From Halarcobacter sp. (GTDB taxonomy: Bacteria; Campylobacterota; Campylobacteria; Campylobacterales; Arcobacteraceae): 64,000 bases of DNA. The notes beneath the pieces are model-generated. The model did no database searches and was not told where the DNA came from. It saw only the letters and a program-made list of their open reading frames with translations. Position numbers and translations under genes: made by a program. This document shows, one piece after another, positions 10,183-61,100 of the stretch; the first letter of the stretch is position 1; every line of letters begins with the position of its first letter. Location of the stretch: positions 1,952,001 to 2,016,000 of the forward strand of contig OY781089.1 of assembly GCA_963676565.1 (NCBI GenBank), read 5' to 3'.

Positions 10183-10235
10183 TTTAAGAAAAGATTTATA
10201 TTTAATAGTTTAGTATTACATTTAATATTTAAAAA

Positions 10236-10304: not shown

Positions 10305-10324
10305 CAATACACTTGGAGTAATAA

Positions 10325-11745: not shown

Positions 11746-11748
11746 TAT

Positions 11749-12030
11749 ATGAAATATTTATTAGTATTAGTTCTTTTCATAAGTTCTATTTTTGCACAAC
11801 AAACTTCAGTTTTTGAAGTTAAAGGTATGCATTGTCCTTTATGTACAACAGCCGTTAAAAAAGCTATTAGAAAACTTGATGGTGTAGAAAAAGTAAGCGC
11901 CCGATTAAACACAAAAAGAGTAACTGTTATACATGATGAAAAAGTTACAATTGACTCAATTTTAAAGGCAATAAAAACTACATCTTATGAAGGTGTAGAA
12001 ATCTCTACAGAAAAAGCTATATCAAAATAA
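11749..12030 (+). CDS. MerP-like periplasmic heavy-metal-associated (HMA) protein
   Basis: Sec-type signal peptide followed by VKGMHCPLC HMA motif. Confidence 0.85.
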   Translation: MKYLLVLVLFISSIFAQQTSVFEVKGMHCPLCTTAVKKAIRKLDGVEKVSARLNTKRVTVIHDEKVTIDSILKAIKTTSYEGVEISTEKAISK

Positions 12031-12173
12031 TAAACTAGTAAATATTTTATTTTCAATAATTGGGAAATAATTTTTTACTTTTTAAACTTCCTTTTAAAAT
12101 AATTTTTATAATATAATTAAATTTATTTATTAAAAATTTAATTTAAATAAATATTCACTTTCAAGGAGAAAAT

Positions 12174-43264: not shown

Positions 43265-44569
43265 TTAGTCTTCCCTTTTTTCTTTCCCTTGATAGTTTCT
43301 ATTAGTGTTTTCATCTCTAATTTGAATAGAGTCTTTTCCAACAAATTGAGATTTTGATATTAGTTCAACATTATTGTTAGCAATTTTAGACATTTGTGAT
43401 GAAATTATTCTAACATTTTCTGCAACTTGTGCATTTTTTTGAGTTAGTGTATCTATTTGGGCAACGGTATTATTTATCATAGAAATACCTAATTCTTGCT
43501 CTTTTGAGGATTGAACAACCTGTTCAATTAGTGAAGTAGTACTATTTATTTTTGCACTTAGGTTTTCATAACCTAATATCATATCATCAGCAATACCTTT
43601 ACCTTCATTAGCCTTAATTGATGCAGATTCAACCAAATTTTTTATCTCTTTTGCTGCATCAGCACTTCTGTTTGCTAGATTTCTAACTTCCCCCGCTACT
43701 ACTGCAAACCCTTTTCCAGCTTCTCCTGCCGTTGCTGCTTCAACTGCTGCATTTAAAGAAAGGATATTTGTTTGAAAAGCAATTTGGTCAATCATATCTA
43801 AAGCTTCATGAACATCCTTTGTTGAATTATTAATTTCATTCATTGCTGTAACTGTTTTTGTTGCTAGAGATAAACCACTTGAAATAGAATTAGTTACTTC
43901 AGCCCCATAGTTTTCCATTTCATTTGCCATATTAGTATTATTTTTGATTGTACTTGTTATCTCTTCAATAGCTGCAGATGCTTCTTCTAATGAAGCAGCT
44001 TGTGTTGTAGTTGATTGAGATAAGTTTGATGAAATATCAAGTAAGTCAGTAGATTCTTTTTGTAAAACTAAACTTGTTCTATATGTACTTTCTAATTGTT
44101 TAGTTATCTCTTTTTTTAGAAAATTAATCCCTTGGGTCATTTTTTTAAAATCCCCACCTCTAAACATTGTTTCATCAATTTCATGTAAAAAGTTTTGTTG
44201 AGAGTATTCATTTAATATCTTTTCAATATTTGCCAATGCTTTTTGAAGCTTTTCAGACATAACATTCATTGTCTTTGCAATATAGTTAAGTTTATTATTT
44301 GAACTTTCTTTTGTAACTCTATCTTCTGTAAAACCATCTGATAGTTTTTCTGCACAAAGCATTATTTCACCATAGATAGTTAAATCTTCAGTATTTTTAC
44401 TTTGAATTAAATTGGAAATATTTAAAATCTTTTCCATAATAAGCTTATCTGTACCACTACAAGTATTATCAGATTGTTCAATTTTATTGATATCCTCTTT
44501 TATGTAATCTTCTATAGTATCTAAAGCTTTTAATATATCATTTGAGTCTTGATTATTTTTAAAAAACAT
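43265..44569 (-). CDS. Soluble methyl-accepting chemotaxis protein (no clear TM)
   Basis: [17 protein letters not shown]; co-oriented with the upstream PAS gene. Confidence 0.88.
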   Translation of the reverse strand: MFFKNNQDSNDILKALDTIEDYIKEDINKIEQSDNTCSGTDKLIMEKILNISNLIQSKNTEDLTIYGEIMLCAEKLSDGFTEDRVTKESSNNKLNYIAKTMNVMSEKLQKALANIEKILNEYSQQNFLHEIDETMFRGGDFKKMTQGINFLKKEITKQLESTYRTSLVLQKESTDLLDISSNLSQSTTTQAASLEEASAAIEEITSTIKNNTNMANEMENYGAEVTNSISSGLSLATKTVTAMNEINNSTKDVHEALDMIDQIAFQTNILSLNAAVEAATAGEAGKGFAVVAGEVRNLANRSADAAKEIKNLVESASIKANEGKGIADDMILGYENLSAKINSTTSLIEQVVQSSKEQELGISMINNTVAQIDTLTQKNAQVAENVRIISSQMSKIANNNVELISKSQFVGKDSIQIRDENTNRNYQGKEKRED

Positions 44570-44578
44570 TTTATGGCC

Positions 44579-44962
44579 TTAGTCTAAAGTTTTATACAGT
44601 TCTTCTGCATTTTTAATCTCTTCATCTGTTGGCTTTACCCTAACAGAGATATATCTTAAGTTACCATTTACATCTTTAGAAGGAAATGCCGTTGCATTTA
44701 CCCAATAATACTCACCACTTTTTGTTTTATTCTTAACAATCCCATTCCATATTTTACCAGCTTGTATAGTTTCCCACAAATCCTTAAATGCAGCCTTTGG
44801 CATATCAGGATGTCTTACGTAATTATGTGGTTGACCTATTAATTCTTCTTTTGTATATCCTGCAATTTTACAAAAATCTTCGTTCGCATAAATAATTATT
44901 CCCTTTGAATCAGTCTCAGAAACAATCATTGTTTCCTTACTAAGTTTAACTTCCCCACTCAT
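44579..44962 (-). CDS. Stand-alone Aer/CetB-like PAS protein
   Basis: IVSETDSKG.IIYAN..F...HNYVRHPDMP..F..LW...W.G.VKN. Confidence 0.88.
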   Translation of the reverse strand: MSGEVKLSKETMIVSETDSKGIIIYANEDFCKIAGYTKEELIGQPHNYVRHPDMPKAAFKDLWETIQAGKIWNGIVKNKTKSGEYYWVNATAFPSKDVNGNLRYISVRVKPTDEEIKNAEELYKTLD

Positions 44963-45123
44963 TATTTTCCCTTTCAAAAGTTAAAAATAATATAATTATC
45001 CCCAGTATACAATAAAAGTGTATCTAAAATGTCTCTTTTTTCTAAAAAGTATCATTTCGTGTGAGTATTTTGTTGCTTTTTTTACTTATATTTCATTTAT
45101 AATAAATTGGATATAATCCGCCA

Positions 45124-47322
45124 ATGAATGAGATATTAAAGAAATTAGACTTAAGTGATTATATAGATTCATTTTCTAAATTATTAGCTAGAGAAAAATC
45201 TATAATCCTAGAAGGGGATATAAACCTTCACCATAGACTTATTAGTGAATTATCAAAATTTGATTTAAAAGAACCAACAAAAGTTGCAAATCTTGACAAT
45301 GCATTGTTACATATACAAAAGCAAGGTATATTAAAAATATATGATATTTATGAGTTCATAAAAATCATTAAATATTTTAACTATTTAAAAAAGTTCAACT
45401 TTGAAGGAAAACTTGCTGAATGGATAGATAGAATTATAATTCCAACAGAGATTAACAAAATATGTGATTACTTTGACGAAAAAGAGAATTTAAGACAAGG
45501 TGTTAATGAAGATTATGATGCAATTAAAGGTGCAATTTATAATAATAAGCAAGAGATAAAACAAAGCCTTTATAAACTAATCAATAACACAAAACTAAGA
45601 AGCTATTTAGTTGATTCACAAGTTCACTATGTAAATGGTGAAGAGTGTTTATTAGTTCGTGGTGGCTTTAACCATGTTATAAAAGCAACTGTTTTAGATA
45701 GATCAAACTCTGGATTTTTTTATGTCTTACCCCATAGTGTTAGTAACTTAAAACAAAAACAAAGTGATTTAATAAATAAGCAAGAAGAGATACTTCTTAA
45801 AGTGTGTAAAGAGATAAGTTCTCTTTTTGAAAAGAATTTACTATTTTTAAAATTTATTAATAAAGAGTTTGATAGATTTGATCATTATCAAGCAAGAATA
45901 TTCTTTTCAAAAATAGGGGATAAGAATTTTATATTACCTAATAAGAAAGGTAAAAACAAACTAGTAGAGTTTAAACATCCAGCATTAAGTGATGCAAAAG
46001 CTATAAGTATAGATTTTTCAAAATCAGTAGTTATGATTACTGGGGTAAATGCTGGTGGTAAAACTATGATGTTAAAATCAATTCTATCAGCTGTATTTTT
46101 ATCAAAATACCTTTTACCATATTATACGCACCATACAAGTGAAGTTGGAACCTTTAAAGAGATTGCTGCTGTATTAGATGATCCTCAAAGTGTTAAAAAT
46201 GATATCTCAACTTTTGCAGGACGTATGGTAGAGTTTTCTAAACTATTTTCTTCAAAAAGTGCAATTGTAGGTGTAGATGAAATAGAACTAGGAACAGATT
46301 CAGATGAAGCAGCTAGCTTGTTTAAAGTTATAATAGAAGAGTTAATTCAAAAAGATATAAAAATCATCATAACAACACACCATAAAAGACTAGCTTCTCT
46401 TATGGCTTCAAATGAAAATGTAGAATTAATAGCTGCACTTTATGATGAAGAGAATCAAAAACCAACTTATGAGTTTTTACAAGGTACCATTGGAAAGTCT
46501 TATGCCTTTGAAACTGCTTCAAGATATGGAATACCACATAATGTAATTAAAAAAGCAAAAGTAGTATATGGTGAAGATAAAGATAGGTTAAATGAACTAA
46601 TAGAAAGAAGTAGTGCCTTAGAAATAGAGTATAAACAAAAGATTAAAAAACTTGAAGAAGAGCAAGAGAGATTTGAAAGATTAAATAAAAATCTAAAAGA
46701 GGCTAAAGAGAGTTTAGATGAACATATTTATGAAGAGAAATCAAAACTTCATAAAGAGTATAAAGATGCAAGAGAAGAAGCAAAGAAAGCTATTAAAGCA
46801 AAAATAGCTGTAGGGCATCAACATCTAAATGTAGCCCATGCAAAAGCTCAATCAATAAAAACTGAAAAAGTTCAAGAAAAAGTTGAACTTAAAGTAGGAG
46901 ATAGAGTTAAATATAGAAGTTCAAAGGGTGAGATTATATCTATAAAAGGGAAAAAGGCTTTTATAGAAAATGATATGGGGATGAAGATGCAAGTCTTACT
47001 TTCAGACTTACAAAGAAGTGGAAACCCACCTGAGATAAAAGCAAAACCAAAAGCTAGTGTAAATGTTCAAAGACCAGACTCTGGACATGTAAAATTAGAC
47101 CTACATGGACAAAGAGCAGATGAGGCAATAGAAAATTTAGATAAGTTTTTATCTGATGCACTAATTGCAGGCTTTGATGAGGTATTAGTTTATCATGGAA
47201 TTGGTACAGGAAAGCTATCATATGCTGTAAAACAGTTTTTAGATAAACATCCACGGGTAAAATCATATGAGGATGCCCATCCATCTTCTGGCGGCTTTGG
47301 AGCTAAAGTTATTAAACTTTAA
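45124..47322 (+). CDS. mutS2: Endonuclease MutS2
   Basis: ITGVNAGGKT, STFAG, DEIELGTD and TTH motifs; C-terminal Smr domain (LDLHG, HGIGTG). Confidence 0.93.
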   Translation: MNEILKKLDLSDYIDSFSKLLAREKSIILEGDINLHHRLISELSKFDLKEPTKVANLDNALLHIQKQGILKIYDIYEFIKIIKYFNYLKKFNFEGKLAEWIDRIIIPTEINKICDYFDEKENLRQGVNEDYDAIKGAIYNNKQEIKQSLYKLINNTKLRSYLVDSQVHYVNGEECLLVRGGFNHVIKATVLDRSNSGFFYVLPHSVSNLKQKQSDLINKQEEILLKVCKEISSLFEKNLLFLKFINKEFDRFDHYQARIFFSKIGDKNFILPNKKGKNKLVEFKHPALSDAKAISIDFSKSVVMITGVNAGGKTMMLKSILSAVFLSKYLLPYYTHHTSEVGTFKEIAAVLDDPQSVKNDISTFAGRMVEFSKLFSSKSAIVGVDEIELGTDSDEAASLFKVIIEELIQKDIKIIITTHHKRLASLMASNENVELIAALYDEENQKPTYEFLQGTIGKSYAFETASRYGIPHNVIKKAKVVYGEDKDRLNELIERSSALEIEYKQKIKKLEEEQERFERLNKNLKEAKESLDEHIYEEKSKLHKEYKDAREEAKKAIKAKIAVGHQHLNVAHAKAQSIKTEKVQEKVELKVGDRVKYRSSKGEIISIKGKKAFIENDMGMKMQVLLSDLQRSGNPPEIKAKPKASVNVQRPDSGHVKLDLHGQRADEAIENLDKFLSDALIAGFDEVLVYHGIGTGKLSYAVKQFLDKHPRVKSYEDAHPSSGGFGAKVIKL

Positions 47323-49483
47323 GATATTTTTTTCTAATCTCATCTTTACATAATGGTTTAGAAAATAAATATCCTTGTACATAATTAGCATTTATATCCT
47401 TTAGCCATTGAAGGCTTTCATTGGTTTCCACCCCTTCAATTACAATGTCACAGTTTAATCCCTGTGTCATGGAAATCATTGAAGTTACCATCTTTCTAGC
47501 TTGTTCATCTTTATCAATTCTAAAAGTAAAAGATTTGTCAACTTTTACTACATCTATTGGGAGGTTATGTAACTGTGATAATGAGGCATACCCTGTCCCA
47601 AAATCATCTAAATAGATTCTTGAACCTTTTTTTGATAATTGATTTAGTTGAAAGTTTAAACTTTCAAGATTTTCCATTGTACTTGTTTCTGTTATCTCAA
47701 AATTAAAATTTTTTAGTTGAAGTGCATGTTTCAATGCGATAGATTCAAAATTCTCTATAAAACTCTCTTTCATTAGTTGTAATACAGAAAGATTTACAGC
47801 AATTGGTAGATTCTTAAGATTATTTTCTTTGTTAAATTTATAAAAGATACAAACTTCATTGAAAATAAGTTCCCCAAGTTCTGTTATCAAACCTTCTGAT
47901 TCTGCAATTGAAATTATATTTTCAGGATTAATAAATTCCTCATCATCATTTTTTACTCTTAAAAGTGCTTCTAATGAGTTGATTTCATTATTTTTCGTAT
48001 TAAAAATTGGTTGGTAGAAAACCTCTAAATATTTTGATGGATTTTTTAATGTTTTTAATAAAATATTTTTAAAACTATCTTTTTCTAAAATATATTTTTC
48101 ATCCTCCTCTTTAAATATAGAAACTTGATTTCTTCCTGCATTTTTTGATCTATACATTGCTGAATCAGCTCTACTCATTAATTCTGCTGTAGTTGTTCCA
48201 TGATCAGGGTAAATAGATACACCAATTGATGTACCTATATTGTGTTCATTATTATTTATAAAAAAAGGTTTTCTAATCTCCTTTATTAAAGACTCTGCAA
48301 TTTTTAATATAATCTTCTCATCTTGAATTCTAGATAATATAATTACAAACTCATCTCCCCCAATCCTTGCTACAATATCATTTGTTCTAACTTTTGATAA
48401 TATTCTTTGTGCAGTTTCTTGAAGAAGTAAATCACCTTCGTGGTGTCCATATATGTCATTTACTTGTTTAAAATGATCTAAATCTAAAAATAAAACAGCA
48501 TTTTTTGTTTTTTTTCTTTTTGAGTTTTCAAGTAAATTTGAGAAATTAATATTTAAAAAATGTCTATTAACAAGTCCAGTTAATACATCATAGTGAGCTA
48601 ATCTATCTAATTCATATTGTCTTTTCTTTCTATCAGTAATATCTGAAAAAATTGCTATATAAAACATTTTTTTAGTTACAGGTTCAATAACTCTGTTTAT
48701 TTGTAACCACTCTGGAAAAATATTATTATTTTTTCTTTTGTTCCAAACCTCACCAGCCCACCAACCATGGTGTGTTATAGATTTCCAGATATCACTGTAG
48801 AAATCTTTCGTATGTCTTCCTGATTTAAGTATACTTGGAGTTTTTCCTAGTACAAAGTCTTGGGAATAACCTGTTATTTCTGTAAATGCACTGTTGACTT
48901 TTAAAATTTTAGCTTCTTCATTTGTAATTATTACACCATCTTTTAATTGATCTAATACTAAATGAGATAGATAATTAGAGCTTTGTGAACCATCAGAATC
49001 ATATGGCAAGATTACACCCATAATTAGTATACCTCTTTCATAGTTTTGAACATCTAGTTTTTTTAATGATAAACTAAAACTTTTTTGATTTTTTAATAAT
49101 AAAAAATGGAAATTCATAGATTTTTGAGAGGTGTCTTTTAGAAATGTTTGAAATTTTGAAGTATATTCCATAAAAACAGATTGATCAAGAAACGTTCTGA
49201 AGTTTTGTTCTAAAATATTAAATTTCCCATTTTCAAAAAAGTTAATAGCAGTTTCATTAAGTTTTTTAATTTTACCAAACTTATCAATTATTACTAGTAT
49301 ATTTGGCGATTGTTCAAAATAGGTACTATAATCTTTTTCTATATTTATCCCACTATATAATAAGTCATTTTCTAATATTTGACAGTCTTGTTTTTGTTTA
49401 AAAAGTTCCTGTTGTAAATCAACAATTATTTGATTTAAACTAGAAATTTGTTCTTGATATGCTCTTATTTCTTCATCAAACAT
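47312..49483 (-). CDS. Coiled-coil-PAS-PAS-GGDEF-EAL c-di-GMP enzyme
   Basis: RIGGDEF intact; EALLR and DDFGTGY intact. Confidence 0.92.
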   Translation of the reverse strand: MFDEEIRAYQEQISSLNQIIVDLQQELFKQKQDCQILENDLLYSGINIEKDYSTYFEQSPNILVIIDKFGKIKKLNETAINFFENGKFNILEQNFRTFLDQSVFMEYTSKFQTFLKDTSQKSMNFHFLLLKNQKSFSLSLKKLDVQNYERGILIMGVILPYDSDGSQSSNYLSHLVLDQLKDGVIITNEEAKILKVNSAFTEITGYSQDFVLGKTPSILKSGRHTKDFYSDIWKSITHHGWWAGEVWNKRKNNNIFPEWLQINRVIEPVTKKMFYIAIFSDITDRKKRQYELDRLAHYDVLTGLVNRHFLNINFSNLLENSKRKKTKNAVLFLDLDHFKQVNDIYGHHEGDLLLQETAQRILSKVRTNDIVARIGGDEFVIILSRIQDEKIILKIAESLIKEIRKPFFINNNEHNIGTSIGVSIYPDHGTTTAELMSRADSAMYRSKNAGRNQVSIFKEEDEKYILEKDSFKNILLKTLKNPSKYLEVFYQPIFNTKNNEINSLEALLRVKNDDEEFINPENIISIAESEGLITELGELIFNEVCIFYKFNKENNLKNLPIAVNLSVLQLMKESFIENFESIALKHALQLKNFNFEITETSTMENLESLNFQLNQLSKKGSRIYLDDFGTGYASLSQLHNLPIDVVKVDKSFTFRIDKDEQARKMVTSMISMTQGLNCDIVIEGVETNESLQWLKDINANYVQGYLFSKPLCKDEIRKKYLKV

Positions 49484-49500
49484 AATTATTTCCTATTAAA

Positions 49501-52320
49501 CTATTTAAAAAATAAAATTCTATCAGGATATAAAGGATCAGGACATTTTTCATGTTTATATTTAACAACATTTCTATTTTTATATTTATCTAAAATTGTA
49601 ATACTACTCCAACCATCACTATCGATTGTATTATTTTTAAAGATGGTATTTTCAATTTCATTTTTAGTAATATTTAAAAAAAGTTTTTCTAAACTTAATT
49701 CTTTTAACTCTCTAGCACTATAATTGAAAAGTTTTTCAGCTAAAAAGTTTGTATGAATTATATTAGAATTTGTATCTACACAAATTATTGGATATTTAGA
49801 ATAAGAACCTAATAGTCCTATAAATTTTTCATGTAATTGATCTGATAAGTAAGTTCTATCTTTTACTTTTTCAAAAAATAGTATTGCACCTACAACCTCT
49901 TTATTATCAAATTTATAAGGAACAATTCTAAGGTCATGATTAATTCTTCTACTCCTTAGATTTATTACAGATTCTTTTTCTAATTCTATTACATTTAAAA
50001 GTTCTGTTCTTAGATTTGGAATATCCATGGTAAAGCCAAATGAAGTTACAACTTGTCCAATGTCATCATGGATTAGTTCAAATAATTTCCCTGCTTTATT
50101 TGTATATCTTTGAAGTCTTAATCTGTTATCAACAAATAAAATATTTTCATCTATTGAACTTAACATTGCAGATAAATCATTGTTTACTTTTCCTAATTCA
50201 AAAGATTTGACTTCTAATTCCTCATTAACCGTTGAAAGTTCTTCATTTGTTGATTGAAGTTCTTCATTAGCAGTTTGAAGCTCTTCATTTGCAGATTGAA
50301 GTTCCTCATTTGCAGATTGAAGTTCTTCATTTGTTGATTGAAGTTCCTCATTACTTGTTTCCAAATCTTGAATAGAACTTTGTAATCTTTCTCTAAAAAT
50401 CTCAATCTCTTGTTTTAATTTATTTTTACTTAGTTCATCAATATCTTTATGATTAACACTAATTGCTGATTCATCAGATAATTCTATTTCTAAAAAAGCA
50501 ATAACAAACAAATCATCTTCTGATGGAGTAATTTCCTCTATAATAATATAAAGTATTCTTTTTTTATCTTTAGAATTGAAGAATAAAGCTTGAGAAGCAG
50601 CATGCTTCTCTTTTTTTGCCTGTTGTAAAAGAGACCTTATATCAATTTTTAAATCATCTTTTGCCATATTAAAAATATTTGTTTCTACTCTTCCTTGCGG
50701 AAATTCAAGGTACTCATTGATATTTCCTTTTATATGTAACATTTCACCCAATGAATTTATTACAATAGAAGCAGGCAAAACTCTATCATTTAAGATTTTA
50801 TTCATTTTATCTTCTAAGCTAACTTCTTCATCTAATTTCATTTTGGTTTTAGTACTAATAGTTTTTTGATTTTTTACTAGTTTTTTTGCACCTTTTACAT
50901 AGTCCAAATTAAAAGATATATCTGTTTTTTTTCTTTTAAATAGTTGGGATTTATTTGTGGAAACATCATATAGTTCAGGAGCTGTGTTTACAGCAGATTC
51001 AGATTTTCCTAAAAACAGATAACTATTTGGTCTTAGGGAATAGTGAAAAGTTTGAAAAATCTTTTTTTGTGTTTCATTGTTAAAGTATATTAGAACATTT
51101 CTACAACTAATTAAGTCTATATTAGAAAAAGGTGGATCCATAATTACGTTTTGTTTTGCAAAAACAACATGATCCCTAAGGGATTTATTTACTATATAAG
51201 AGTTATCATTTTCTTGAAAGTATCTTTTTAACAAAGCTTGATTAATCTCTTTTACTTGAGATGCAGAATATACAGCTTTTCTAGCTAAATTAAGCGCATA
51301 ATCATCAATATCTGTTGCAAATATTTGAAATGAGACAGGTTTATCTTGTTTTCTTTTTGCTTCTTCAAATAATATTGCAATAGAATAAGCTTCAGCTCCA
51401 TTTGCACAACCCGTAACCCAAACTCTAATAGGATCTTTTAAATCTCTTTTTTTAACAATATTATCGACTACTATTTTTAGGTCGTCAAATGCTTCTTTAT
51501 CCCTAAAAAAGTCTGTAACTGAGATAAGTAAGTCTTTAAATAAGGCTTCAACTTCAGAAGAAGAACTATTTAAGAGATTAATATAATCTTCTAAAGCAAC
51601 TATTTTATTAACCACCATTCTTCTTTGAATTCTTCTTTGAATTGTTTTTAATTTATAGCCACTAAAATCATATGAGGTTTGATCAAATATTGATTGAAAT
51701 ATTTTTTCTAAATTAGTTCTTATTTTTGGTTCAGTAACTTTATATTGATACTCTTCCGTTGTATTTATTAGTTTAGGAAGTTCAATTGCAATCTCATTTG
51801 CAGGAAGAATTAAATCAACAAAACCAGTTTCAATTGCAGATTTAGGCATACCAGAATATTTTGCACTTATTTCATCTTGCGCTATTGTTATTCCACCAGC
51901 TGCTTTTATAGCTGTGATTCCAACAGAACCATCACTTCCAGTACCAGATAAAACTATACCTATACTATAATCTTTTAATTCATCCGCCATAGAGCTAAAT
52001 AGTTCATTTATTGAAGGTTTTGGCCCAATTAATGCTGCAGGAGATAATTTTATCTCTTCATCCTTAATTGAAGCATTATGTCCAGGAGCAATAATATAAA
52101 TTGAACCTTTTTCAGGTTTAATATCTTTTTCTACCATATGAATAGGTAGATTTGTAACCCGTGCTAATAAATCTTTTAGAATAGTTGGATGGGTTGGGTC
52201 AAGATGTTGTGCAATTATATAAATTGCATCACTAAACTCTAGGTTTTTTAAAAACTCTTTTATTGCATCTAGTCCCCCAGCACTAGCACCGATTCCTATC
52301 CAGAAATTTTTCTTTTTCAT
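49501..52320 (-). CDS. CheB methylesterase-CheR methyltransferase fusion with coiled coil and PAS domains
   Basis: GIGASAGG, QHL and SGTGSDG (CheB triad); RVWVTGC, ATDID and SCRNVLIYF (CheR); (LQSxNEE)n. Confidence 0.92.
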   Translation of the reverse strand: MKKKNFWIGIGASAGGLDAIKEFLKNLEFSDAIYIIAQHLDPTHPTILKDLLARVTNLPIHMVEKDIKPEKGSIYIIAPGHNASIKDEEIKLSPAALIGPKPSINELFSSMADELKDYSIGIVLSGTGSDGSVGITAIKAAGGITIAQDEISAKYSGMPKSAIETGFVDLILPANEIAIELPKLINTTEEYQYKVTEPKIRTNLEKIFQSIFDQTSYDFSGYKLKTIQRRIQRRMVVNKIVALEDYINLLNSSSSEVEALFKDLLISVTDFFRDKEAFDDLKIVVDNIVKKRDLKDPIRVWVTGCANGAEAYSIAILFEEAKRKQDKPVSFQIFATDIDDYALNLARKAVYSASQVKEINQALLKRYFQENDNSYIVNKSLRDHVVFAKQNVIMDPPFSNIDLISCRNVLIYFNNETQKKIFQTFHYSLRPNSYLFLGKSESAVNTAPELYDVSTNKSQLFKRKKTDISFNLDYVKGAKKLVKNQKTISTKTKMKLDEEVSLEDKMNKILNDRVLPASIVINSLGEMLHIKGNINEYLEFPQGRVETNIFNMAKDDLKIDIRSLLQQAKKEKHAASQALFFNSKDKKRILYIIIEEITPSEDDLFVIAFLEIELSDESAISVNHKDIDELSKNKLKQEIEIFRERLQSSIQDLETSNEELQSTNEELQSANEELQSANEELQTANEELQSTNEELSTVNEELEVKSFELGKVNNDLSAMLSSIDENILFVDNRLRLQRYTNKAGKLFELIHDDIGQVVTSFGFTMDIPNLRTELLNVIELEKESVINLRSRRINHDLRIVPYKFDNKEVVGAILFFEKVKDRTYLSDQLHEKFIGLLGSYSKYPIICVDTNSNIIHTNFLAEKLFNYSARELKELSLEKLFLNITKNEIENTIFKNNTIDSDGWSSITILDKYKNRNVVKYKHEKCPDPLYPDRILFFK
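50218..50352 (-). repeat. In-frame 21-bp tandem repeat encoding NEELQS[T/A] heptads
   Basis: About 6 imperfect copies of a 21-nt unit (e.g. TTCATTTGCAGATTGAAGTTC). Confidence 0.85.
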
Positions 52321-53795
52321 ACTTTCCCTTCAATAATTTTAAAAAACTGATTTGTGAACTTTAAGGCAGCTAATTCTTCTTGACTATGAAATTTATTACA
52401 AAACCCATGTTTTTCTTCAACAAATCTTTCAAATGACCTTCTAGGAGATAATCTAAAAACTCCTTTATGTTCTACAATAGATTTATTAGGATTTCCTGCC
52501 CAAGTTAGTTTTTCAGAAATTTCATTTCTAAACCAGTAAGATCTTAGTGCTGAGTTTTGAGATTCTAGTTTGATCCCTAAAACTCCAACTGGTCCTATAA
52601 AGTTCAAATCAAAATCTTTTGATATAGAGTTTGAAACTATTTTATTAGAATTTGAATTTAAAAAGTATTCATCTAAGTTTCTTAATGAATTGTTTTCAGG
52701 TATTGAACCTATTGCCCATATTTGAGAGTTATAAATTATAATTAAACCATCGCTGTTTAATAGTTGTAAAAAATGATTTTTATTCTCTTGTATTTGTATT
52801 TCGAAATTATTTAAATCAGAGATAGTATTTAATAAAGAGTTTATTTTATGCTCAACTAAATCTAAATAGGCAATTTTTTCTTTTGCAAAGAAGTTTTGTA
52901 AACCTAGTGAAAACTGTTGGATAAGATTAAGTATATTATTTCTTTGTAAAGGATCTATTCTTTTATATGTGAAGTTATGGCAAGCTAACAGCCCCCAAAG
53001 CTTGTTTGCAATTATAATTGGGATTGATAAAGATGTTATAACTCCCATATTTTTTAAATATTCAATATGAACGGGGGAAACACTTCTTATATCTGAAAAA
53101 GTTAAATCTGGTTTACTCCCATCTATTGTTAAGATATCTATATCTTTTGAGTTTACATCAGCAATTAATCTGTAGGGATTAATCATATACATATCCCTTG
53201 CAATTTTAGGAATATCTGATGCAGGGAACATCAATCCTAGATAACTATCAGCACCTTCATTTGAAACTTTTTCTGCAATCACTTTTCCTGACCAATCATC
53301 TTGAAATTGATATATTAAAATTCTGTCAAATTTCAGTTGATTATCTATAAGTTCTAAAAATGTATTTTTATAGTCATTGTATTCAATATCATTACAAGGA
53401 GCAATTGTAAGTTCTGTATTGTACTTAATAGTTTTACTTAAAAATTCTTCTTTAATCTTTTGAATATCTATAACTATTGAATTATCAATTTTAGATAACT
53501 TAAGTAAAAGTTTTTCTTTTTTTAAAGTTTTATAAAAAAAATTTACATCTTCATCATCTAATTTATATTCATCTAAAAGTTTGTAAAAATCTTTTAAGAG
53601 ATTTTTTATATTTTTTCCTAGCAAATCTTTACAATCAATTGATAAAAAATCTTTGATATTTTCAGAAACGTGGCTTATTATAAAACTTTCACTATCAAAT
53701 ACTAAAAGTGAGGAAAAAGATTGAATCATTCCAGTTAAGTGAAGTTGCTCTTGTTCACATGTTTTTAATAATTCATCAATATCATAGTTTTGCAT
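52317..53795 (-). CDS. Bacteriophytochrome photosensory core only (PAS-GAF-PHY), no kinase or other output domain
   Basis: Biliverdin-attachment Cys13 (TCEQEQLHLTGMIQ), PASDIP, RSVSPVH..YL, LWGLLACH, WFR, WAGNP, LSPRRSF; stop follows PHY. Confidence 0.9.
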   Translation of the reverse strand: MQNYDIDELLKTCEQEQLHLTGMIQSFSSLLVFDSESFIISHVSENIKDFLSIDCKDLLGKNIKNLLKDFYKLLDEYKLDDEDVNFFYKTLKKEKLLLKLSKIDNSIVIDIQKIKEEFLSKTIKYNTELTIAPCNDIEYNDYKNTFLELIDNQLKFDRILIYQFQDDWSGKVIAEKVSNEGADSYLGLMFPASDIPKIARDMYMINPYRLIADVNSKDIDILTIDGSKPDLTFSDIRSVSPVHIEYLKNMGVITSLSIPIIIANKLWGLLACHNFTYKRIDPLQRNNILNLIQQFSLGLQNFFAKEKIAYLDLVEHKINSLLNTISDLNNFEIQIQENKNHFLQLLNSDGLIIIYNSQIWAIGSIPENNSLRNLDEYFLNSNSNKIVSNSISKDFDLNFIGPVGVLGIKLESQNSALRSYWFRNEISEKLTWAGNPNKSIVEHKGVFRLSPRRSFERFVEEKHGFCNKFHSQEELAALKFTNQFFKIIEGKV

Positions 53796-53800
53796 AATAT

Positions 53801-54385
53801 CTAGCTTTCAAAGTGTTTTTTTAGTACTATAAATGTTTCTGTGGCACCTAAAGTTGTTTCATATTTATCAATTTCTACTTCATCTAACCACTTTGAAAAA
53901 CTTAACCATTTATTCATGGTATCCTGTTTATATGATTGATAATATCTATTTGGTACATTGTTCTTAAAGTTTTTTTCTATCATTTTAACTATTTGCATCC
54001 CACCCATAGTTGAACCCTCTAATACATAAAGTGCACCAACTACAGAAGCGAAATTATTTAATGTTTTAAATTCTATATTTTTTTTAATATTTAAATTGTC
54101 AATTTCTACATTTAAATAGTTTAAATCTTCAATTAACCATTTCGTTTTTTCAAGTCTTTTTTCTATATCTTCAAGCTTTTTTTCCACAAATTCATTTTTA
54201 TGGTTTTTAATAATTAATTCGATTATACTAAAAAAAGAATAAAGTTTTTTTAATAAAAAAATATACTCCTCTTCAGACAAATTATTTTTTTTGATTTTTT
54301 CGAATAAATAGAATTCTTCTAGCCATTCATGGAGTGGATAAGTAGCATTTTTTAGATGGTTTTTCAGTGAATCGTTATTTTTCAT
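53801..54385 (-). CDS. bphO: Biliverdin-producing heme oxygenase (BphO-type)
   Basis: LKNAT...H heme ligand, GALYVLEGSTMGG; directly upstream of the phytochrome. Confidence 0.88.
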   Translation of the reverse strand: MKNNDSLKNHLKNATYPLHEWLEEFYLFEKIKKNNLSEEEYIFLLKKLYSFFSIIELIIKNHKNEFVEKKLEDIEKRLEKTKWLIEDLNYLNVEIDNLNIKKNIEFKTLNNFASVVGALYVLEGSTMGGMQIVKMIEKNFKNNVPNRYYQSYKQDTMNKWLSFSKWLDEVEIDKYETTLGATETFIVLKKHFES

Positions 54386-54458
54386 AAATTAATATCTCCC
54401 CTAGTAATAATTTATTTTATCTTATTATTAATAAATTAATATAATTTTTATATACGGT

Positions 54459-56831
54459 TTATATATTTTTTGGATTTTCAAAAGGGGGACTAAATAAGTA
54501 TCCTTGTGAGTAATCAATTCCTAACTCTTGTACCTTTTTTAAGATTGATTCATTTTCAACAAATTCTGCAATTGTTTTCATCCCTAAATCTTTCGCAAAA
54601 TTCACTATATTTTTACAAACTTTTTCACTAAGAATATCTTTATCAATATTTTTTATTAAAGAACCATCTATTTTTATAAAATCTGCTTTTAGTTTTAAAA
54701 GATATTCAAAATTACTATAACCAGTACCAAAATCATCAATAGCAATTCTACACCCAAAAGATTTAACTTTTTTAATAAAATTTAAAACAATTTCAAAGTT
54801 TTCAATTGATTCAGATTCAACTATCTCAAAAACAACTCTTTTACCAACTTGTGAGTCTGATAGTATTTTATAAATAAACTCTTTTATCTCAACATTTAAA
54901 ATATCTTCAATTGTTAAATTTATAGAAAAATTATATTCAAGGTCTTTGAATTTTTCTATGGTTTTTTCTATCATAATTTTTGTAATTTGATTGTAAAATT
55001 TAGTTTTCTTTGAAATTTCTAGAAAAAAGTAGGGTGATATTAATTTATCTTTTTTCCTCATCCTAACTAAAGCTTCATATTTTTCAACCTTTAAAGTTTT
55101 GTTATTTATAATTGCTTGATATACTGGTAGAATATTGTCTTTTTCTATTGCATCTTTAATGGATTTAGTCCATTTTATATTATTTTCATACTCTTTGTCT
55201 AAAGATATATCATCTTTGTAAACTAAGATATCTTTATTGTGTTGCTTTGCAATTTTAATAGTCATTGTTGCTGTGTTTAAAATTCTATTTTTTTCTTCAA
55301 AGGAGATTCCAATGGTAAAATTTAAATTGATAAAGTCTTCACTATCAATATAAAAATTTTCTTTTTTTAGTTGGGTGTTTATAGAGTTAATTTTTTGCAA
55401 AAAAAGATCAGTACTTATATCTTCATAAAAAATTACAAATTCATCACTATGTAAACGATAAATGTTACAACTATTTGAATCTTTTATAATGTTTAGTTTT
55501 TCTGCAAATCTTTTAAGTATCTTGTCACCAATTATATATCCATAAAAATCATTTATTTCAGAAAACCTATCAATATTTATAATTGCTAATGCAGGCTTAG
55601 TGCTTTTGTTTATATCATTTATAAGTTTATATCTATTTCCTAAGTTTGTTAGAATATCAGTATTAACAATAGTATCTAATCTTTCTTGTTGTTCAATAGT
55701 TTTAGTTATATCATGTCTTATTCCAATATATTCATTTATATTGTTTTTATCATCAAGAATAGGGACTATTGTAATATCTACCCAATAATAATTTCCATCT
55801 TTAGTGATATTTTTTAATGTTTTTTTCCAAACTCTTTTTGATCTAATCGTTGTCCACAACTCTTCAAAAATAGATTTTGGATTATCTGGATGTCTAATAA
55901 TATTATGGGGTTTACCAATTAATTCCTCTTTTGTATAGCCACTTATTTTACATAAGTTATCATTTACATAAGTAATATTACCTGCTAAGTCTGACTTTGA
56001 AACGATACTTGATTTATCCATCGCAATTTTGTAACTTTCAAATAAAGATATAGTCCTTTTTAATTCATATTCTATCTCTTTTATTTGACTTATATCTTGA
56101 ACTGTCCCAACAGACCTATATGGATTACCATCTTTGTCAAAGTAATTATCACATTTTTCTTCAACATATTTTATTCTTCCATCTTTCATTTTTAATCTAT
56201 GTTGAATAGCATAAGGTTTTTTTGTTTTAAGTGAATTTAAATATGCATTATTTACCATCTCTTTATCTTCTGGATGAATTGCATTTAAAAAATATTCATA
56301 AGAAGGTTCAAATTTAGATTTATCTATTTCGAAAATCTTATATATTTGATCAGACCAAAAGAGATTATTATTGATAATGTCATACTCCCAGTTACCAATA
56401 TTTGCTAACCTTTGAGCTGTATTCATTTTTTTTGTTATTTCAACTTCTCTTGTGACATCTTTTTGAATACCTAAAAAAAACTGTAGTTTATTGTTTTCGT
56501 CAAAAATTGGAGTTATTGTTAATTCACAGTAAACAATTTCACCATTTTTTTTCTGATTTTTAACAATAGTAGTTATTGATTTTTCTTCTTTTATTGCCTT
56601 TCTTATTTCATCTATTGATTTTTGTTCTTTATTACTTGTTTGTAGGAATCTACAGTTTTTACCCAAAACTTCATCCTCTTTATAATCAAACATTTTATAA
56701 AAACTTTTATTTGCGTAAATAATAGGATTATCGTCTTTTTTAGGATCAGTAATTAGTATTCCGTTTACTGCTTGGTCTATGATTTTTGAGAGAAAAATAT
56801 TTAAGTTTTCATCTAAATAATCTTCTCCCAT
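54459..56831 (-). CDS. LOV-PAS-PAS-degenerate GGDEF-EAL phosphodiesterase (blue-light sensor)
   Basis: DNPIIYAN...GKNCRFLQ...GIQKDVT LOV signature; GGDEF replaced by HSDEF; EALVR and DDFGTGY intact. Confidence 0.88.
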   Translation of the reverse strand: MGEDYLDENLNIFLSKIIDQAVNGILITDPKKDDNPIIYANKSFYKMFDYKEDEVLGKNCRFLQTSNKEQKSIDEIRKAIKEEKSITTIVKNQKKNGEIVYCELTITPIFDENNKLQFFLGIQKDVTREVEITKKMNTAQRLANIGNWEYDIINNNLFWSDQIYKIFEIDKSKFEPSYEYFLNAIHPEDKEMVNNAYLNSLKTKKPYAIQHRLKMKDGRIKYVEEKCDNYFDKDGNPYRSVGTVQDISQIKEIEYELKRTISLFESYKIAMDKSSIVSKSDLAGNITYVNDNLCKISGYTKEELIGKPHNIIRHPDNPKSIFEELWTTIRSKRVWKKTLKNITKDGNYYWVDITIVPILDDKNNINEYIGIRHDITKTIEQQERLDTIVNTDILTNLGNRYKLINDINKSTKPALAIINIDRFSEINDFYGYIIGDKILKRFAEKLNIIKDSNSCNIYRLHSDEFVIFYEDISTDLFLQKINSINTQLKKENFYIDSEDFINLNFTIGISFEEKNRILNTATMTIKIAKQHNKDILVYKDDISLDKEYENNIKWTKSIKDAIEKDNILPVYQAIINNKTLKVEKYEALVRMRKKDKLISPYFFLEISKKTKFYNQITKIMIEKTIEKFKDLEYNFSINLTIEDILNVEIKEFIYKILSDSQVGKRVVFEIVESESIENFEIVLNFIKKVKSFGCRIAIDDFGTGYSNFEYLLKLKADFIKIDGSLIKNIDKDILSEKVCKNIVNFAKDLGMKTIAEFVENESILKKVQELGIDYSQGYLFSPPFENPKNI

Positions 56832-57092: not shown

Positions 57093-57479
57093 CTAGCCTT
57101 TTAGTGATTTAATCATCTCTTCCATGATTACATTTGCTTGTTCATTTGGCGCTTCTAAAAAGTTTACTACAAACATATCTTCTAGTTCACAAACACCTAT
57201 TGCTCTTGGTCTTACAGCTAAAACCTCAGGAGTTGGTATCTCTTTACCAAAACAAAATATAATATTTTTAGCATCTTTAATATCTTCTCTTATAACTCCA
57301 TCTACTCTCTTTGTTTGTGAAAACTGATCAAATGTTGAAATATAAGCTATCACAGGATGTGCATCAATTTTGTCTTTTAGCGCTGCTAATATCTCATTCA
57401 CATTTTTGAATTTTAATTCATCTTTTGAAAATTCAATTTCAAAAATGTGGTATTTATCTTTAAAAGTTTTTTGTTTCAT
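57093..57479 (-). CDS. Conserved hypothetical protein (DUF6858-like)
   Basis: IFCFG..IP.PEVLAVRPRAIGV; family assignment recalled, not verified. Confidence 0.6.
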   Translation of the reverse strand: MKQKTFKDKYHIFEIEFSKDELKFKNVNEILAALKDKIDAHPVIAYISTFDQFSQTKRVDGVIREDIKDAKNIIFCFGKEIPTPEVLAVRPRAIGVCELEDMFVVNFLEAPNEQANVIMEEMIKSLKG

Positions 57480-57492
57480 TTAATGTTCCTTT

Positions 57493-58041
57493 TTATTTTT
57501 TTAATGTTATAAACGATTTAATGACACAATCCATTCTTTCAGGGATATCGCTAGTATCCATATTCATATAATCAGTTTGTATCTTATAAATTAGTTTATT
57601 GTCAAGTTTAAATTCAAAGACTAGGTACCCAGCATAAAGTTTACATTTTGTTCCTTTTTTTCCCTTGTCTTCTTTATCATTTTCAAGTATGTAATAATCA
57701 ATTAAAAGTTTTTTATCCTTTAGTTTTTTGTCTTTTACATACTTATTTATAGTTTCATTTAAATATTCATTTGCTTTCTCTTCACATATATGTTTATCAA
57801 TTTGTGATTCCATATATACAGATTTTTCGATTCTAGATTTAATAATATAATTAGAAGTTTCAAGAAGCTCAATAGCCTCTTGTGCAAGTTGTTTATTCGA
57901 TATTTTTTCAAAGGTTGTAGTTTTTGTTTGACAGGTTAGTCTTTTTTCTTTTTTTATGTGGTCATTTGATTCTTTAGTTAGTAAACCATAAGAGAAAAAT
58001 CCAACAATAAAAATTAATATAAAAATAAAAAATTTGTTCAT
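57493..58041 (-). CDS. Hypothetical membrane-anchored protein
   Basis: N-terminal TM segment, 182 aa ORF with RBS. Confidence 0.7.
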   Translation of the reverse strand: MNKFFIFILIFIVGFFSYGLLTKESNDHIKKEKRLTCQTKTTTFEKISNKQLAQEAIELLETSNYIIKSRIEKSVYMESQIDKHICEEKANEYLNETINKYVKDKKLKDKKLLIDYYILENDKEDKGKKGTKCKLYAGYLVFEFKLDNKLIYKIQTDYMNMDTSDIPERMDCVIKSFITLKK

Positions 58042-58135
58042 AGTATTCCCTTTTGTTAAGTTAAATAGAATACTAACGTAATAATTATTATAAGTAAATT
58101 AAATAAATGTATTATAATTTATAGTTATAATACAT

Positions 58136-61100
58136 TTATTTTGTAGAGACATCGAAGTTAAATACTGCCCATTTGTTTTTCTCATCTTCTTGTTTTGTAA
58201 TGTCATCTATAATAATAGATTCTTTTGGAACTTTTTTCATGTTAAATAAGTAATTTTTAATATTTTCTATTCTTTTTTTAGTAATTGAAATCAATTCTTT
58301 TTCTGAAACATTTTGTTTAGAAGCAAGGAAATCTCTTAAGTATTCTGTATACGCATCAATTTGAAAATACTCTTTTCCATTTTTATCTTTTTTATAATAT
58401 GTTTCTTTTATTTTATCTAAGTCTTTTACATCTTTTAACTCATTATAAAACTCTTCTAAAGCTTCTTTATAATCATCCCCTTCAGGTATCTTTTCCATTC
58501 TTTTTAATACAAATTGTTCAAATTTTATATCTTGAAGAGCTTTTTTATCTTTTTGAGGATTATAAATTGGTTTTATCTTTATTGCAAGTCTAGGTTTTTT
58601 TGATAAAAGTTTTGCAATACTATCTAAGGTCTCTTTTTCAGAAGGTACAATATCACTTTTACCAAACTCAAAATCCATACTTTTTATCTTATCTTCATCA
58701 ATTCCTAACATTGCCCCAAGTAAGGCAAATGGTGAAGTGATTGCTTTAACTATTAAGTTTGTGAATACTTTCCAAACAATAGGTGCAATTGAAAATTGAG
58801 GATCATCAACATTACCTGAAATAGGTAAATCAATATCTATAATTCCATCTGAATCTTCTAGTAATGCAATAGCTAGTTCTAATGGAAGATTAACTGCGTC
58901 TGGACTTTCTACTTTTTCACCCAATTTAATATCACTAATGATAACTGAGTTTTGGGCACTTAAATCAGATTTTTTGATATTATATTTTAAATCTAGATTT
59001 AATTTACCACTATCGATTTTTCTTCCTATAAATTTACCTGAATATGGTGTGAAATTTTTAATTGCTATATTTTTAAATAATAAATTTGTATCTGTTAATA
59101 ATTTAATATCATTAATATCTACAGTTCCAACAATTTTTGTATAACCATATTTATCAACTTTACCTTCCAATTGGAGTTTTGTTGGTTTTGAATTACTTGA
59201 GTTTAATCTTGAAAAACTACCTTGTAGTTCATTTATATTTGTTTTAAATGGTATTGGAAGATTTTTATCTTCAAAAGTCATCTTCATATTTTTTATTTTT
59301 ACTGGACCTACATCAAATTTAAAATCACTTTTTTCTTTTGAAGCTTTTTTAACTGTTTCTTCTTCAACTTTTTTGTCTTGTGATTTTTCTTTTTTCCCTA
59401 GTGTAATTGATACATAGGGTTTATTTATATCTGAAGATTGAACTTTTAAATTATTGTTAGCAAAAGAGATTTTATTTACATTTATGTTAATATTTTTTGC
59501 AAGAATATCAGTTTTTGCTTTTTTATCTTTTATATTTGTATTTGGATTATATAAATTTAAACTAGAAATTGAAATTGCACCTTTATTACTAATTAGATCA
59601 TTCAATTTCAAACTGATGTTTCTTGCAACAATATTTTGATCATTTTTATTATCAACAAAATAAATTGAAGGCTTAGCTAATCTAATTGTTTTAATATTTA
59701 GTTTTTCATCTTTTAGTGTTGTATTTAAAGCACTTAGATTTAAGCTTTTTGTTGTGATATTCATTTTACTTTTTTTATCATTGAATTTTATAGTTGGAAT
59801 ACTTAATTTTGTTTCATCAAGAGCTATATCATTTCCATTTAGGCTAAAGTTTTTAGCGGTGATAGTATTTGAGTTAGCTACAACATTCATAGAACTTTTC
59901 TTATCTAAAAAATAAATAGATGGGTTTGTTAGTTTTATATTTGAGATAGTTGTGCTTTCATTTTCTTTTTTGATATTAGCGATATTTAAATCAGTTTTTT
60001 TACTAAATATTGTGGTTTTATTTTTTAAGTCTTCAAAATCTAAAGAACTATTTTTTATATTTAATTCATCAAGTAAGATATTTGAATTTGAAAAAGAGAA
60101 ATTATTTGCATCTATTTCTAACTCTTTATTTAAAATTGATAAATTGTTGTTTTTATTGTCAATTGTAATATTAGGTTTTGACAAAAGTAAATTGGCTAGT
60201 GTAATATCACTACCATCAACTTTTAAATCTTTTAAAGTAATATTTAAATCATCTGTTTTTGTAAAAAGTTTGCTTGATAAATCATCAAATTTTATATTTG
60301 ATTCTTTTAAATCAAAGTTTTTTAAAGAGATAGTCCATTTGTTACTTTCTTCTTGTTTTTGTGAAGCATTTGTTTCAATTTCAGTATTTATAGGCTCTTC
60401 AACTTTTTCTTCATTATTTGCAATTAAATTTGCAAAATTAATTTCACCTTTTTCATCTACTATTGCATTAAGATTTAGTTGATTTAAAACTATCGCTTCT
60501 ATATCAATATTGTTTTTTGGATATTGAAGATTTATATTATCTATTGCAAAATTTTCTAAAGAAGTTAGTGTTTTTTCATCTTTTGATATATTAAGTTTAT
60601 TTAATGCTAAATAACCATCATTTAAAATGACACTCAACTTATTTTCTGTATCAACTTTATAACCAATTTTTAAATCAATAAAAGTCTCTTCACTTAAATC
60701 AAAGTTTACTAAATCTTTTTTGTAGTTTAAAAACTGTTTTGGTCTAATATTTTTTAGCTCTACATTTCCATACATTTTAAATGGAGCAAGTCTTAAACCT
60801 CCGTTTATTTCTAACTCACTATTTTGATTGATTAACATTCTTAATGAGTGTGAAGCTAAAATATTTCTAAATGTACCCATATCATAAAATGTATAATCAA
60901 ATTTACTAATATTTAATTTATATGGTTCATCATCTTTATTTAATTTTGTGAAGTTAATAGAAGCATTATCTAAAATAGTTCTATATATTTGGAATTTTAT
61001 ATCTGAACTAGTTGTTTTTGTTTCCTCTTTAGTTTTTTCCTCTTTCTTTTCTTTTAAAAGTTTTTGTAGGTTAAAGGTTCCATCTTCATATTCAATAATA

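Follow-up and report, generated by a model that had tools for sequence, protein, structure and literature searches.

A core-only bacteriophytochrome encoded with a CheB-CheR scaffold and a GGDEF-EAL enzyme in Halarcobacter

Four genes and their products

The window analysed here is a 64,000-nucleotide (nt) stretch of the genome of Halarcobacter sp. (contig OY781089.1), and this report concerns four closely spaced genes on its minus strand, at 47312-54385. In the order of reading, these are bphO, bphP, cheBR and a PAS-GGDEF-EAL gene, encoding a heme oxygenase, a bacteriophytochrome, a fusion of CheB and CheR domains and a putative enzyme of cyclic di-GMP (c-di-GMP) turnover. The phytochrome is called core-only below, as its chain carries the PAS_2, GAF and PHY domains and no output module. 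The operon is laid out as follows (aa, amino acids).

54386-54458, minus strand: spacer 5' of bphO, likely promoter region; 73 nt, AT-rich, with the ribosome-binding site GGGGAG
53801-54385, minus strand: bphO, heme oxygenase, 194 aa (Pfam Heme_oxygenase PF01126, E 8.3e-14)
52317-53795, minus strand: bphP, core-only bacteriophytochrome, 492 aa (Pfam PAS_2, GAF, PHY)
52317-52320, minus strand: ATGA overlap of the bphP stop and the cheBR start (read from the sequence)
49501-52320, minus strand: cheBR, scaffold gene, 939 aa (Pfam, PDB alignments, AlphaFold2 model)
47312-49483, minus strand: PAS-PAS-GGDEF-EAL enzyme gene, 723 aa (Pfam, motifs)

The spacers measure 5 nt between bphO and bphP, minus 4 nt between bphP and cheBR, and 17 nt, including AGGAAA, between cheBR and the GGDEF-EAL gene. 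At the ATGA junction of the bphP TGA and the cheBR ATG, GAAGGGAAAG stands just before. The initial annotation had noted this stop-start overlap and had taken cheBR for a complete gene rather than the result of a simple frameshift. The overlap is seen in the sequence, and the initial description of the block agrees with the analysis in all details checked. A frameshifted kinase gene is rejected because cheBR is complete, with a start codon of its own, and has homologs. A promoter and terminator scan is uninformative in such AT-rich DNA, where 64 promoter-like sites were counted and chance alone would give 70.9, and four raw-read runs sharing a species label gave 0 to 4 partly fitting reads apiece, which is no measure of expression.

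BphP consists of PAS_2 (residues 13-111, PF08446), GAF (146-294, PF01590) and PHY (319-489, PF00360), with no further Pfam domain. The chain ends 37 aa past PRRSF (residues 451-455); about 40 aa, without a histidine kinase or GGDEF domain, had been estimated initially. In 26 core-only relatives, 30-87% identical to BphP, Cys13, D194-I195-P196, H243, H273, W432-A433-G434, P451, R452, S454 and F455 are invariant. We take Cys13 to bind biliverdin, H243 and H273 to belong to the chromophore pocket, and WAG and PRRSF to belong to the tongue. The closest solved structure is the phytochrome core 4r6l (E 1.4e-52), in which Cys13 aligns with a cysteine of the chromophore region. BphP is 87% identical to a protein named from Arcobacter arenosus, and its PHY domain is the single one in the genome (a single 3.34-Mb contig). 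Judged by its sequence, the phytochrome is whole, not broken.

The lack of an output domain is shared by the close relatives of BphP. Among the best 120 homologs from a collection of 5.8 billion proteins, 116 are core-only (PAS_2/GAF/PHY, 374-509 aa), and the first kinase-bearing homolog stands at rank 108 with 31% identity. A search restricted to longer proteins gave, among its best 120, none above 33% identity to BphP. A profile search was also run against 1.84 billion cluster representatives, clustered at 50% identity; of the best 150 clusters listed, 93 are 470-535 aa long, and the top 68 are all at most 530 aa. In a quick maximum-likelihood tree, with a small outgroup sample, 82 core-only rows stand apart from 5 kinase-type rows with a support of 97 in the Shimodaira-Hasegawa-like approximate likelihood-ratio test (SH-aLRT). 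Since core-only homologs and clusters prevail and the tree is split in this way, the output-less state is old and maintained. Close homologs with a C-terminal kinase, by which the initial annotation would have recognised a recent truncation, were not seen, and such a truncation is rejected on the counts of core-only homologs and clusters.

The same data bear on the idea that BphP is a decaying, non-signalling remnant of a kinase-type phytochrome, which we regard as scarcely credible. The absence of an output domain would fit decay, as would one locus (L055) in which bphP is found in two open reading frames (ORFs) of 453 aa and 93 aa. However, the core-only length prevails among the clusters, the functional residues are invariant, and the heme oxygenase gene has been retained alongside.

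The CheBR protein is matched by the Pfam families CheB_methylest (residues 8-180), CheR_N (204-252), CheR (268-448) and PAS_10 (716-817), with a weak match to PAS_9 (844-895). Its AlphaFold2 model has a mean predicted local distance difference test (pLDDT) of 76.9 and a predicted template modelling score (pTM) of 0.36. From the N-terminus, the following parts are distinguished.

51763-52302, minus strand: CheB methylesterase domain, residues 7-186, or 6-186 in the model (alignment to 1a2o_A; model)
50932-51714, minus strand: CheR methyltransferase, residues 203-463, with a helical N-domain and an S-adenosylmethionine-binding domain (Pfam, PDB alignment, model)
50482-50817, minus strand: PAS-like middle domain, residues 502-613 (AlphaFold2 model only; no Pfam match)
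Residues 628-722: long helix with a short break at 653-657 (AlphaFold2 model)
50218-50370, minus strand: acidic heptad run, residues 651-701, candidate methyl-accepting coiled coil (repeat pattern, conservation)
49867-50154, minus strand: PAS_10 domain, residues 723-818, or 726-818 in the model (PF13596, E 4e-12; model)
Residues 822-840: helix between PAS10 and the C-terminal PAS (AlphaFold2 model)
49507-49788, minus strand: C-terminal PAS, residues 845-938 (weak PAS_9, alignment, model)

Ser13, His39 and Asp130 of the CheB part, invariant in 26 partners, align with positions 164, 190 and 286 of the Salmonella CheB chain 1a2o_A, the Ser-His-Asp catalytic triad. By Pfam, CheBR has no receiver (REC): a Response_reg match is absent and the methylesterase domain begins at residue 7-8. 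The CheR part carries PF03705 and PF01739, and residues 204-448 align with 5ftw (E 5e-31) and 1af7 (E 2.5e-24).

No gene for CheA, CheW or a methyl-accepting chemotaxis protein (MCP) was found by Pfam among the proteins encoded in the operon, and the MCP signalling domain PF00015 was not matched in CheBR, BphP or the GGDEF-EAL protein. The initial annotation had likewise seen no receptor, CheA or CheW in this block, to which it must be added that an MCP gene lies at 43265-44569, outside the operon and beyond mutS2, the gene with which the operon's last gene converges. The CheW-domain genes of the genome are located at 1.28, 1.59, 1.68 and 2.21 Mb, all beyond the window, and a canonical cheB/cheR/cheA cluster is found ~200 kb away, also outside it. 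Because this separate cluster exists, the cheBR fusion is not the housekeeping adaptation enzyme.

Linkage of the phytochrome and the CheB-CheR scaffold

To see the neighbourhood of such genes elsewhere, loci were scanned in one genome per prokaryotic species. This gave 213 stretches with BphP relatives, of which the best 80 were kept; all locus counts below refer to these. Homology to BphP stops at most 38 aa from the ORF end in all 80. A CheR-containing gene is found within three genes of the core-only bphP in 65 loci, and the loci linked in this way belong to the Alpha-, Beta- and Gammaproteobacteria and the Campylobacterota. The co-conservation of core-only bphP with cheBR, which the initial annotation had proposed as a check, is thus seen.

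The commonest partner, in 54 of the 80 loci, is a single protein of ~1500 aa with the order CheB-CheR-PAS10-PAS-PAS-GGDEF-EAL, encoded directly upstream of bphP on the same strand. In two further loci (L023 and L018) a CheBR-GGDEF-EAL fusion stands downstream of bphP, and in four (L004, L006, L041 and L063) it is upstream and in pieces, so that the linkage is found in both gene orders. In three loci (L020, L042 and L080), GGDEF-EAL at the end of the scaffold gives way to HisKA-HATPase (with or without REC). Two loci, from a Campylobacterales metagenome-assembled genome (MAG; L002) and Hydrogenovibrio halophilus (L024), have a CheBR of 943 or 952 aa and a separate PAS-GGDEF-EAL protein of 764 or 729 aa. 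While the output of the partner varies between GGDEF-EAL, HisKA-HATPase and kinase plus REC, the CheB-CheR-helix-PAS10 part stays the same. It is thus the scaffold, and not any one output, that the phytochrome is tied to.

The enzyme of the window carries the RxxD I-site and the GGDEF, EAL and DDFGTG motifs, all found by motif scan and Pfam. Among the fused partners (n=56), 54 have an intact GGDEF, 50 an intact EAL and 53 an intact I-site. The spacing of the genes is close in other species as well. For 63 loci the partner is upstream on the same strand; 35 of these partners overlap bphP, some of the large overlaps being an artefact of over-long ORF starts, and 22 more are at most 40 nt away. 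In 31 of the 80 loci the gene next to bphP on its downstream side encodes a heme oxygenase, and in 10 others such a gene is found within 5 kb.

Fifteen loci are without a CheBR gene. In four of them less than 1.1 kb of sequence is available upstream of bphP, in one an upstream GGDEF-EAL ORF is cut by the contig end, and in L013 a CheB remnant is fused to PAS10-PAS-PAS-GGDEF-EAL. The remaining nine are taken up in the last section.

The initial annotation had described the wiring of the system as free of phosphorylation. Neither a kinase nor a receiver is encoded in the operon, but such wiring need not hold for the whole family, given the three partners that end in a histidine kinase. Its further proposal, a link from CheBR to the GGDEF/EAL enzyme, is supported by the fused proteins, with one of which the pair in the window aligns from end to end. 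Residues 6-801 of the window's CheBR align with 34-818 of the fused protein of a Sulfurospirillum locus (L012), and residues 58-711 of the GGDEF-EAL protein align with 859-1509 of the same fusion, which places the split point between PAS10 and the next PAS. The split forms have in addition a C-terminal PAS on CheBR and an N-terminus of ~57 aa on the cyclase. Read from these alignments, the window holds a derived, split and reordered variant of the fused form.

A congener (G092, locus L092) has the identical four genes in the same order with other flanking genes, and because the four genes are kept in order between different flanks the arrangement is not due to chance. The distribution of the cassette is patchy, as only 2 of 184 genomes of the family have a core-only phytochrome. 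The split-form rows of the window, G092, L002 and L024 make up one group in the phytochrome tree (98), whose sister is L012 (97), and G092, L002 and L024 group with the window in the CheBR tree alike. The scaffold is closer to that of the window than the phytochrome is in each of these three: identities for CheBR versus BphP are 75% versus 52% in G092, 57% versus 39% in L002 and 44% versus 34% in L024.

Several observations on single loci and on neighbouring genes are added here. L020 comes from a Rhodospirillales MAG; here a full-length phytochrome kinase ORF of 931 aa (9495-12290) follows 21 nt after the core-only bphP. The end of this ORF also scores as heme oxygenase, and it may be two genes read as one; the CheBR partner of this locus ends in GAF-HisKA-HATPase-REC. 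L025, whose contig bears the label of a Klebsiella pneumoniae MAG, has a core-only bphP and a heme oxygenase gene, no CheBR and an adjoining Ser/Thr kinase gene, and its taxonomic label may be a binning error. In the window itself, the gene directly upstream of the operon (54459-56831, minus strand) encodes a 790-aa protein with three PAS domains; its EAL domain is intact and its GGDEF site is degenerate (HSDEF), and it is probably a phosphodiesterase because of this combination. It is not among the cassette genes in the congener. Further upstream (57093-61420, minus strand) are genes for a DUF6858 protein (128 aa) and a 1094-aa DUF748/YhdP-like protein, unrelated to the operon finding. On the other side, 43265-44977 (minus strand) holds a gene for a stand-alone PAS protein of 132 aa followed by that for the 434-aa protein with an MCP signalling domain; the pair is outside the operon, and the oppositely oriented mutS2 lies in between. 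In this MCP, two sites follow the methylation consensus strictly, one at residue 191 and one at residue 198.

The heptad run and the question of methylation

The long helix of CheBR contains six or seven heptads of the form N-E-E-L-Q-(S/T)-(A/T). This run of 51 residues is the best-conserved segment of the protein; the mean share of the commonest residue per column is 0.82 here (25 of the 51 columns reach at least 0.9), compared with 0.63 in CheB, 0.61 in CheR and 0.42 in PAS10. Among 26 partners no variation is seen in the glutamate pairs 658/659, 672/673, 679/680 and 693/694, and the pairs 665/666 and 686/687 are at least 90% conserved. A 55-aa stretch around the heptads has 17 acidic residues and 1 basic residue. 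A narrow heptad-repeat pattern was matched at least once in 62 of the 65 CheBR partners and at least twice in 60.

For chemoreceptors, a methylation consensus [ASTG][ASTG]xx[EQ][EQ]xx[ASTG][ASTG] is given, with methylation at heptad position c (PMC6829392). Its second half, [EQ][EQ]xx[ASTG][ASTG], has five tandem matches at residues 658-691 of CheBR and is found nowhere else in the protein. The second glutamate of each pair occupies position c, if the asparagine is counted as a and the leucine as d. What speaks against a methylated helix is that the strict 10-position consensus has no match in CheBR, in contrast to two in the window's own MCP. We give about even chances to the suggestion that CheR and the REC-less CheB act on the scaffold's own heptad helix, that is, to self-methylation.

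Two other substrates were considered. One is the phytochrome itself, the methylation of its glutamates by CheBR tuning its photochemistry or its choice of partner. The tight translational coupling of the two genes and one QEELAA stretch in the C-terminal helix of the window's BphP would agree with this idea, which is nevertheless very improbable: a strict consensus site is missing from 80 of the 82 core-only phytochromes, the family consensus does not retain the C-terminal glutamate pair, and the conserved pairs are in the CheBR partner.

The other possible substrate is the ordinary chemoreceptor. The phytochrome would then tune CheBR so that light shifts the adaptation of MCP arrays, with c-di-GMP as a side output. 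The catalytic residues of CheB and CheR are intact and the genome's MCPs have strict methylation sites, one of these receptors being encoded 3 kb from the operon, so some room is left for this explanation. It is still judged unlikely, since CheBR is covalently joined to GGDEF-EAL in most linked loci, no MCP, CheA or CheW is conserved nearby, and a candidate substrate helix is conserved in cis in 62 of the 65 partners. Moreover, the genome already has canonical CheB and CheR, and the nearby MCP gene lies beyond a gene on the opposite strand.

Scaffolds without a phytochrome and a proposed response to light

Among 401 Campylobacterota genomes, a CheBR-like match was found in 34, and in 16 of these, the window's genome counted, it extends past the heptads. 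CheBR scaffolds are far commoner than the link to a phytochrome. Eight phytochrome-free scaffolds (L101-L108), 33-43% identical to the window's CheBR, were inspected. All eight have 3-7 heptads, seven have a histidine kinase end, and five are flanked by REC-GGDEF, REC-GGDEF-EAL or REC-HD-GYP genes. In two of the eight loci, an output-less PAS sensor gene is placed directly upstream of the CheB-CheR-kinase gene with a gap of 3-8 nt; it encodes a 476-aa protein with a sensor domain and a PAS in L104 (9714-11144) and a 242-aa PAS protein in L107 (6204-6932). These two loci hint that trans-acting inputs are general for the CheB-CheR scaffold.

Two further loci of this set may be mentioned for themselves. 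L105 (6084-9044), in a genome without a phytochrome, encodes a 986-aa CheB-CheR-PAS10-PAS protein with no output domain, similar in composition to the window's CheBR, and pilin-like genes adjoin it. In L102, an S-adenosylmethionine synthetase gene (12176-13351) follows the gene for the CheB-CheR-kinase and that for its REC-GGDEF-EAL regulator, which may mean a local supply of the methyl donor or may be a coincidence.

The tree of the CheBR part differs from that of the phytochrome. The window's clade joins the phytochrome-free Campylobacterota scaffolds (98), and 19 fused, phytochrome-linked rows form a clade of their own (100). A single clade of phytochrome-linked scaffolds was rejected in an approximately unbiased (AU) test (p 1.2e-5), which was run on a quick tree of heterogeneous composition after that tree had been seen. 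Therefore, either the phytochrome was lost repeatedly or the core moved between scaffold lineages. A module that recognises some generic scaffold feature would agree with either history.

The four genes probably form one unit of signalling from light to c-di-GMP, a bipartite photoreceptor made of separate polypeptides. In this proposal, BphO would supply biliverdin, which BphP would bind at Cys13 and use to photoconvert. Since BphP has no output domain, it is proposed to act in trans: the holo-phytochrome core, presumably a dimer, would dock on the CheBR scaffold as a detachable input module. On photoconversion, the acidic coiled coil that lies between the PAS domains would change its state, and this state, via the region of PAS, long helix and PAS10, would set the balance of GGDEF and EAL activities. 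The tethered CheR and the unregulated, REC-less CheB would methylate and demethylate the paired glutamates and thereby reset the stability of the helix and, through it, the gain of the output or its state of adaptation. In chemoreceptor systems, CheR and CheB are held to prefer opposite conformations of their substrate; such a preference would alone be sufficient to give adaptation to steady light.

We infer from sequence comparison the binding of BphP to the scaffold, its binding site, the role of the heptads as substrate and the direction of the signal. A complex prediction for full-length BphP and CheBR residues 465-939, made without controls, gave no answer (score 0.00 against a mark of 0.32). 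The interpretation first put forward for this locus, a relay of light in trans from the phytochrome to CheBR and on to the enzyme, agrees with the kinase-free close homologs, the co-conservation of CheBR and its fusion to GGDEF-EAL. Methylation, which it took for a relay step, may instead serve feedback or adaptation, and phosphorylation-free wiring as a universal trait is put in doubt by the kinase-ended partners.

A number of results weigh against the proposed unit. Any phytochrome match is found in only 2 of the 401 Campylobacterota genomes, so the scaffolds need none; in one of these two (G068) the phytochrome is of the long type and on a different contig. The nine loci left over above have a core-only bphP with enough flanking sequence, unrelated neighbours and no CheBR. 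With the profile used, a heme oxygenase gene went undetected in 39 of the 80 loci. A CheB or CheR domain is present in none of the best 120 longer phytochrome homologs, hence no fusion of a phytochrome to CheBR was seen, although this is weak evidence. To these is added the rejection of a single clade of linked scaffolds.

Some of these points would be expected if the genes were merely co-expressed, with BphP signalling to an unlinked partner, for example a transcription factor, in the manner of some other phytochromes that act in trans, and the CheBR-GGDEF-EAL part sensing another cue through its PAS domains. Besides the nine loci and the mostly phytochrome-free scaffolds, the three or four PAS domains on the scaffold agree with this explanation. 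However, the linkage is seen in four classes and with either order of the genes, it has survived gene fission, it involves CheBR proteins of different lineages, and an overlap or a gap of at most 40 nt is seen in 57 of 63 upstream partners. Mere co-expression is therefore considered rather improbable, and joint signalling by the phytochrome and the scaffold is preferred.

A wider proposal is that proteins with the order CheB-CheR-heptad helix-PAS10 are a receptor-free, self-methylating scaffold into which output-less sensors plug, the phytochrome core being one of them. A generic docking feature fits because the linked scaffolds are not one clade and because output-less PAS sensors are encoded upstream in two of the eight phytochrome-free loci. 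This proposal is put forward tentatively, as one that could well turn out to be wrong.

The system shares parts with each of several known kinds and lacks a defining feature of each. BphG1-type proteins likewise govern c-di-GMP turnover with a biliverdin phytochrome core via PAS-GGDEF-EAL; their core, however, is covalently fused to the output, whereas in the window's system the core is a protein of its own, with a CheB-CheR-helix-PAS10 module placed between it and the output. Rhodobacter sphaeroides BphG1, which figures by title among the references of PMC8846402, is reportedly of this kind, and one of the proteins collected here (P0294), with 1321 aa and the order PAS2-GAF-PHY-PAS-PAS-PAS-GGDEF-EAL, is BphG1-like. 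With the canonical phytochrome kinases (bphO-bphP-bphR), the system has in common the heme oxygenase neighbour, the N-terminal cysteine and the DIP, W(G/A)G and PRxSF motifs. The canonical kinases have in addition HisKA/HATPase and a response regulator, neither of which is present in the window's operon, and the nearest kinase-type proteins are at most 33% identical to BphP.

The chemoreceptor adaptation system offers homologous CheR and CheB catalytic domains and heptad-spaced glutamate pairs in a long helix, with the second glutamate at position c. In contrast, the window's system is without an MCP signalling domain, CheA or CheW, its CheB is without REC, the strict consensus is missing, and CheR and CheB are fused to each other and to their putative substrate. 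Chemosensory pathways that control c-di-GMP exist (PMC8846402). They combine methylation enzymes with a diguanylate cyclase output, as is the case here, while they rely on phosphotransfer from CheA to REC-GGDEF, and the operon has neither kinase nor receiver. The Wsp system is a pathway of this kind.

Table 3 of an Azospirillum survey lists CheB methylesterase and MeTRC as sensing domains of histidine kinases (PMC4618731), and this table line was the sole trace of the scaffold family in the literature searched. The so-called 'Histidine kinase with CheB and CheR' proteins, of which L101-L108 are examples, have the same CheB-CheR-heptad helix-PAS10 scaffold. They differ in that most are kinase-ended and often stand next to REC-linked c-di-GMP enzymes, with a phytochrome nearby in 0 of 8. 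In the full-text literature searched, which leaves subscription-only papers aside, no account of a core-only phytochrome paired with CheB-CheR or of the heptads was found, nor any functional study of the family of CheB-CheR-kinase scaffolds.

Textbook phytochromes are sensors fused to their output on one chain, whereas the large clade described here has done away with it. This clade comprises at least 93 clusters at 50% identity and four bacterial classes, and its members are consistently encoded beside a CheBR partner. If the two proteins cooperate, phytochromes would have a new mode of signalling, the uncharacterised 'CheB-CheR sensor' proteins would for the first time become open to functional study, and adaptation based on methylation might also exist outside the arrays of chemoreceptors. 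The receptor-free, self-methylating scaffold into which sensors plug would, if confirmed, be categorically new; it would adapt without an MCP, CheA or CheW. The system is small, soluble and simple to reconstitute; it could yield an optogenetic red-light module with built-in adaptation. For the bacteria themselves, the proposal, if true, would mean that non-phototrophic species sense changes in red and far-red light, rather than its absolute level, through c-di-GMP.

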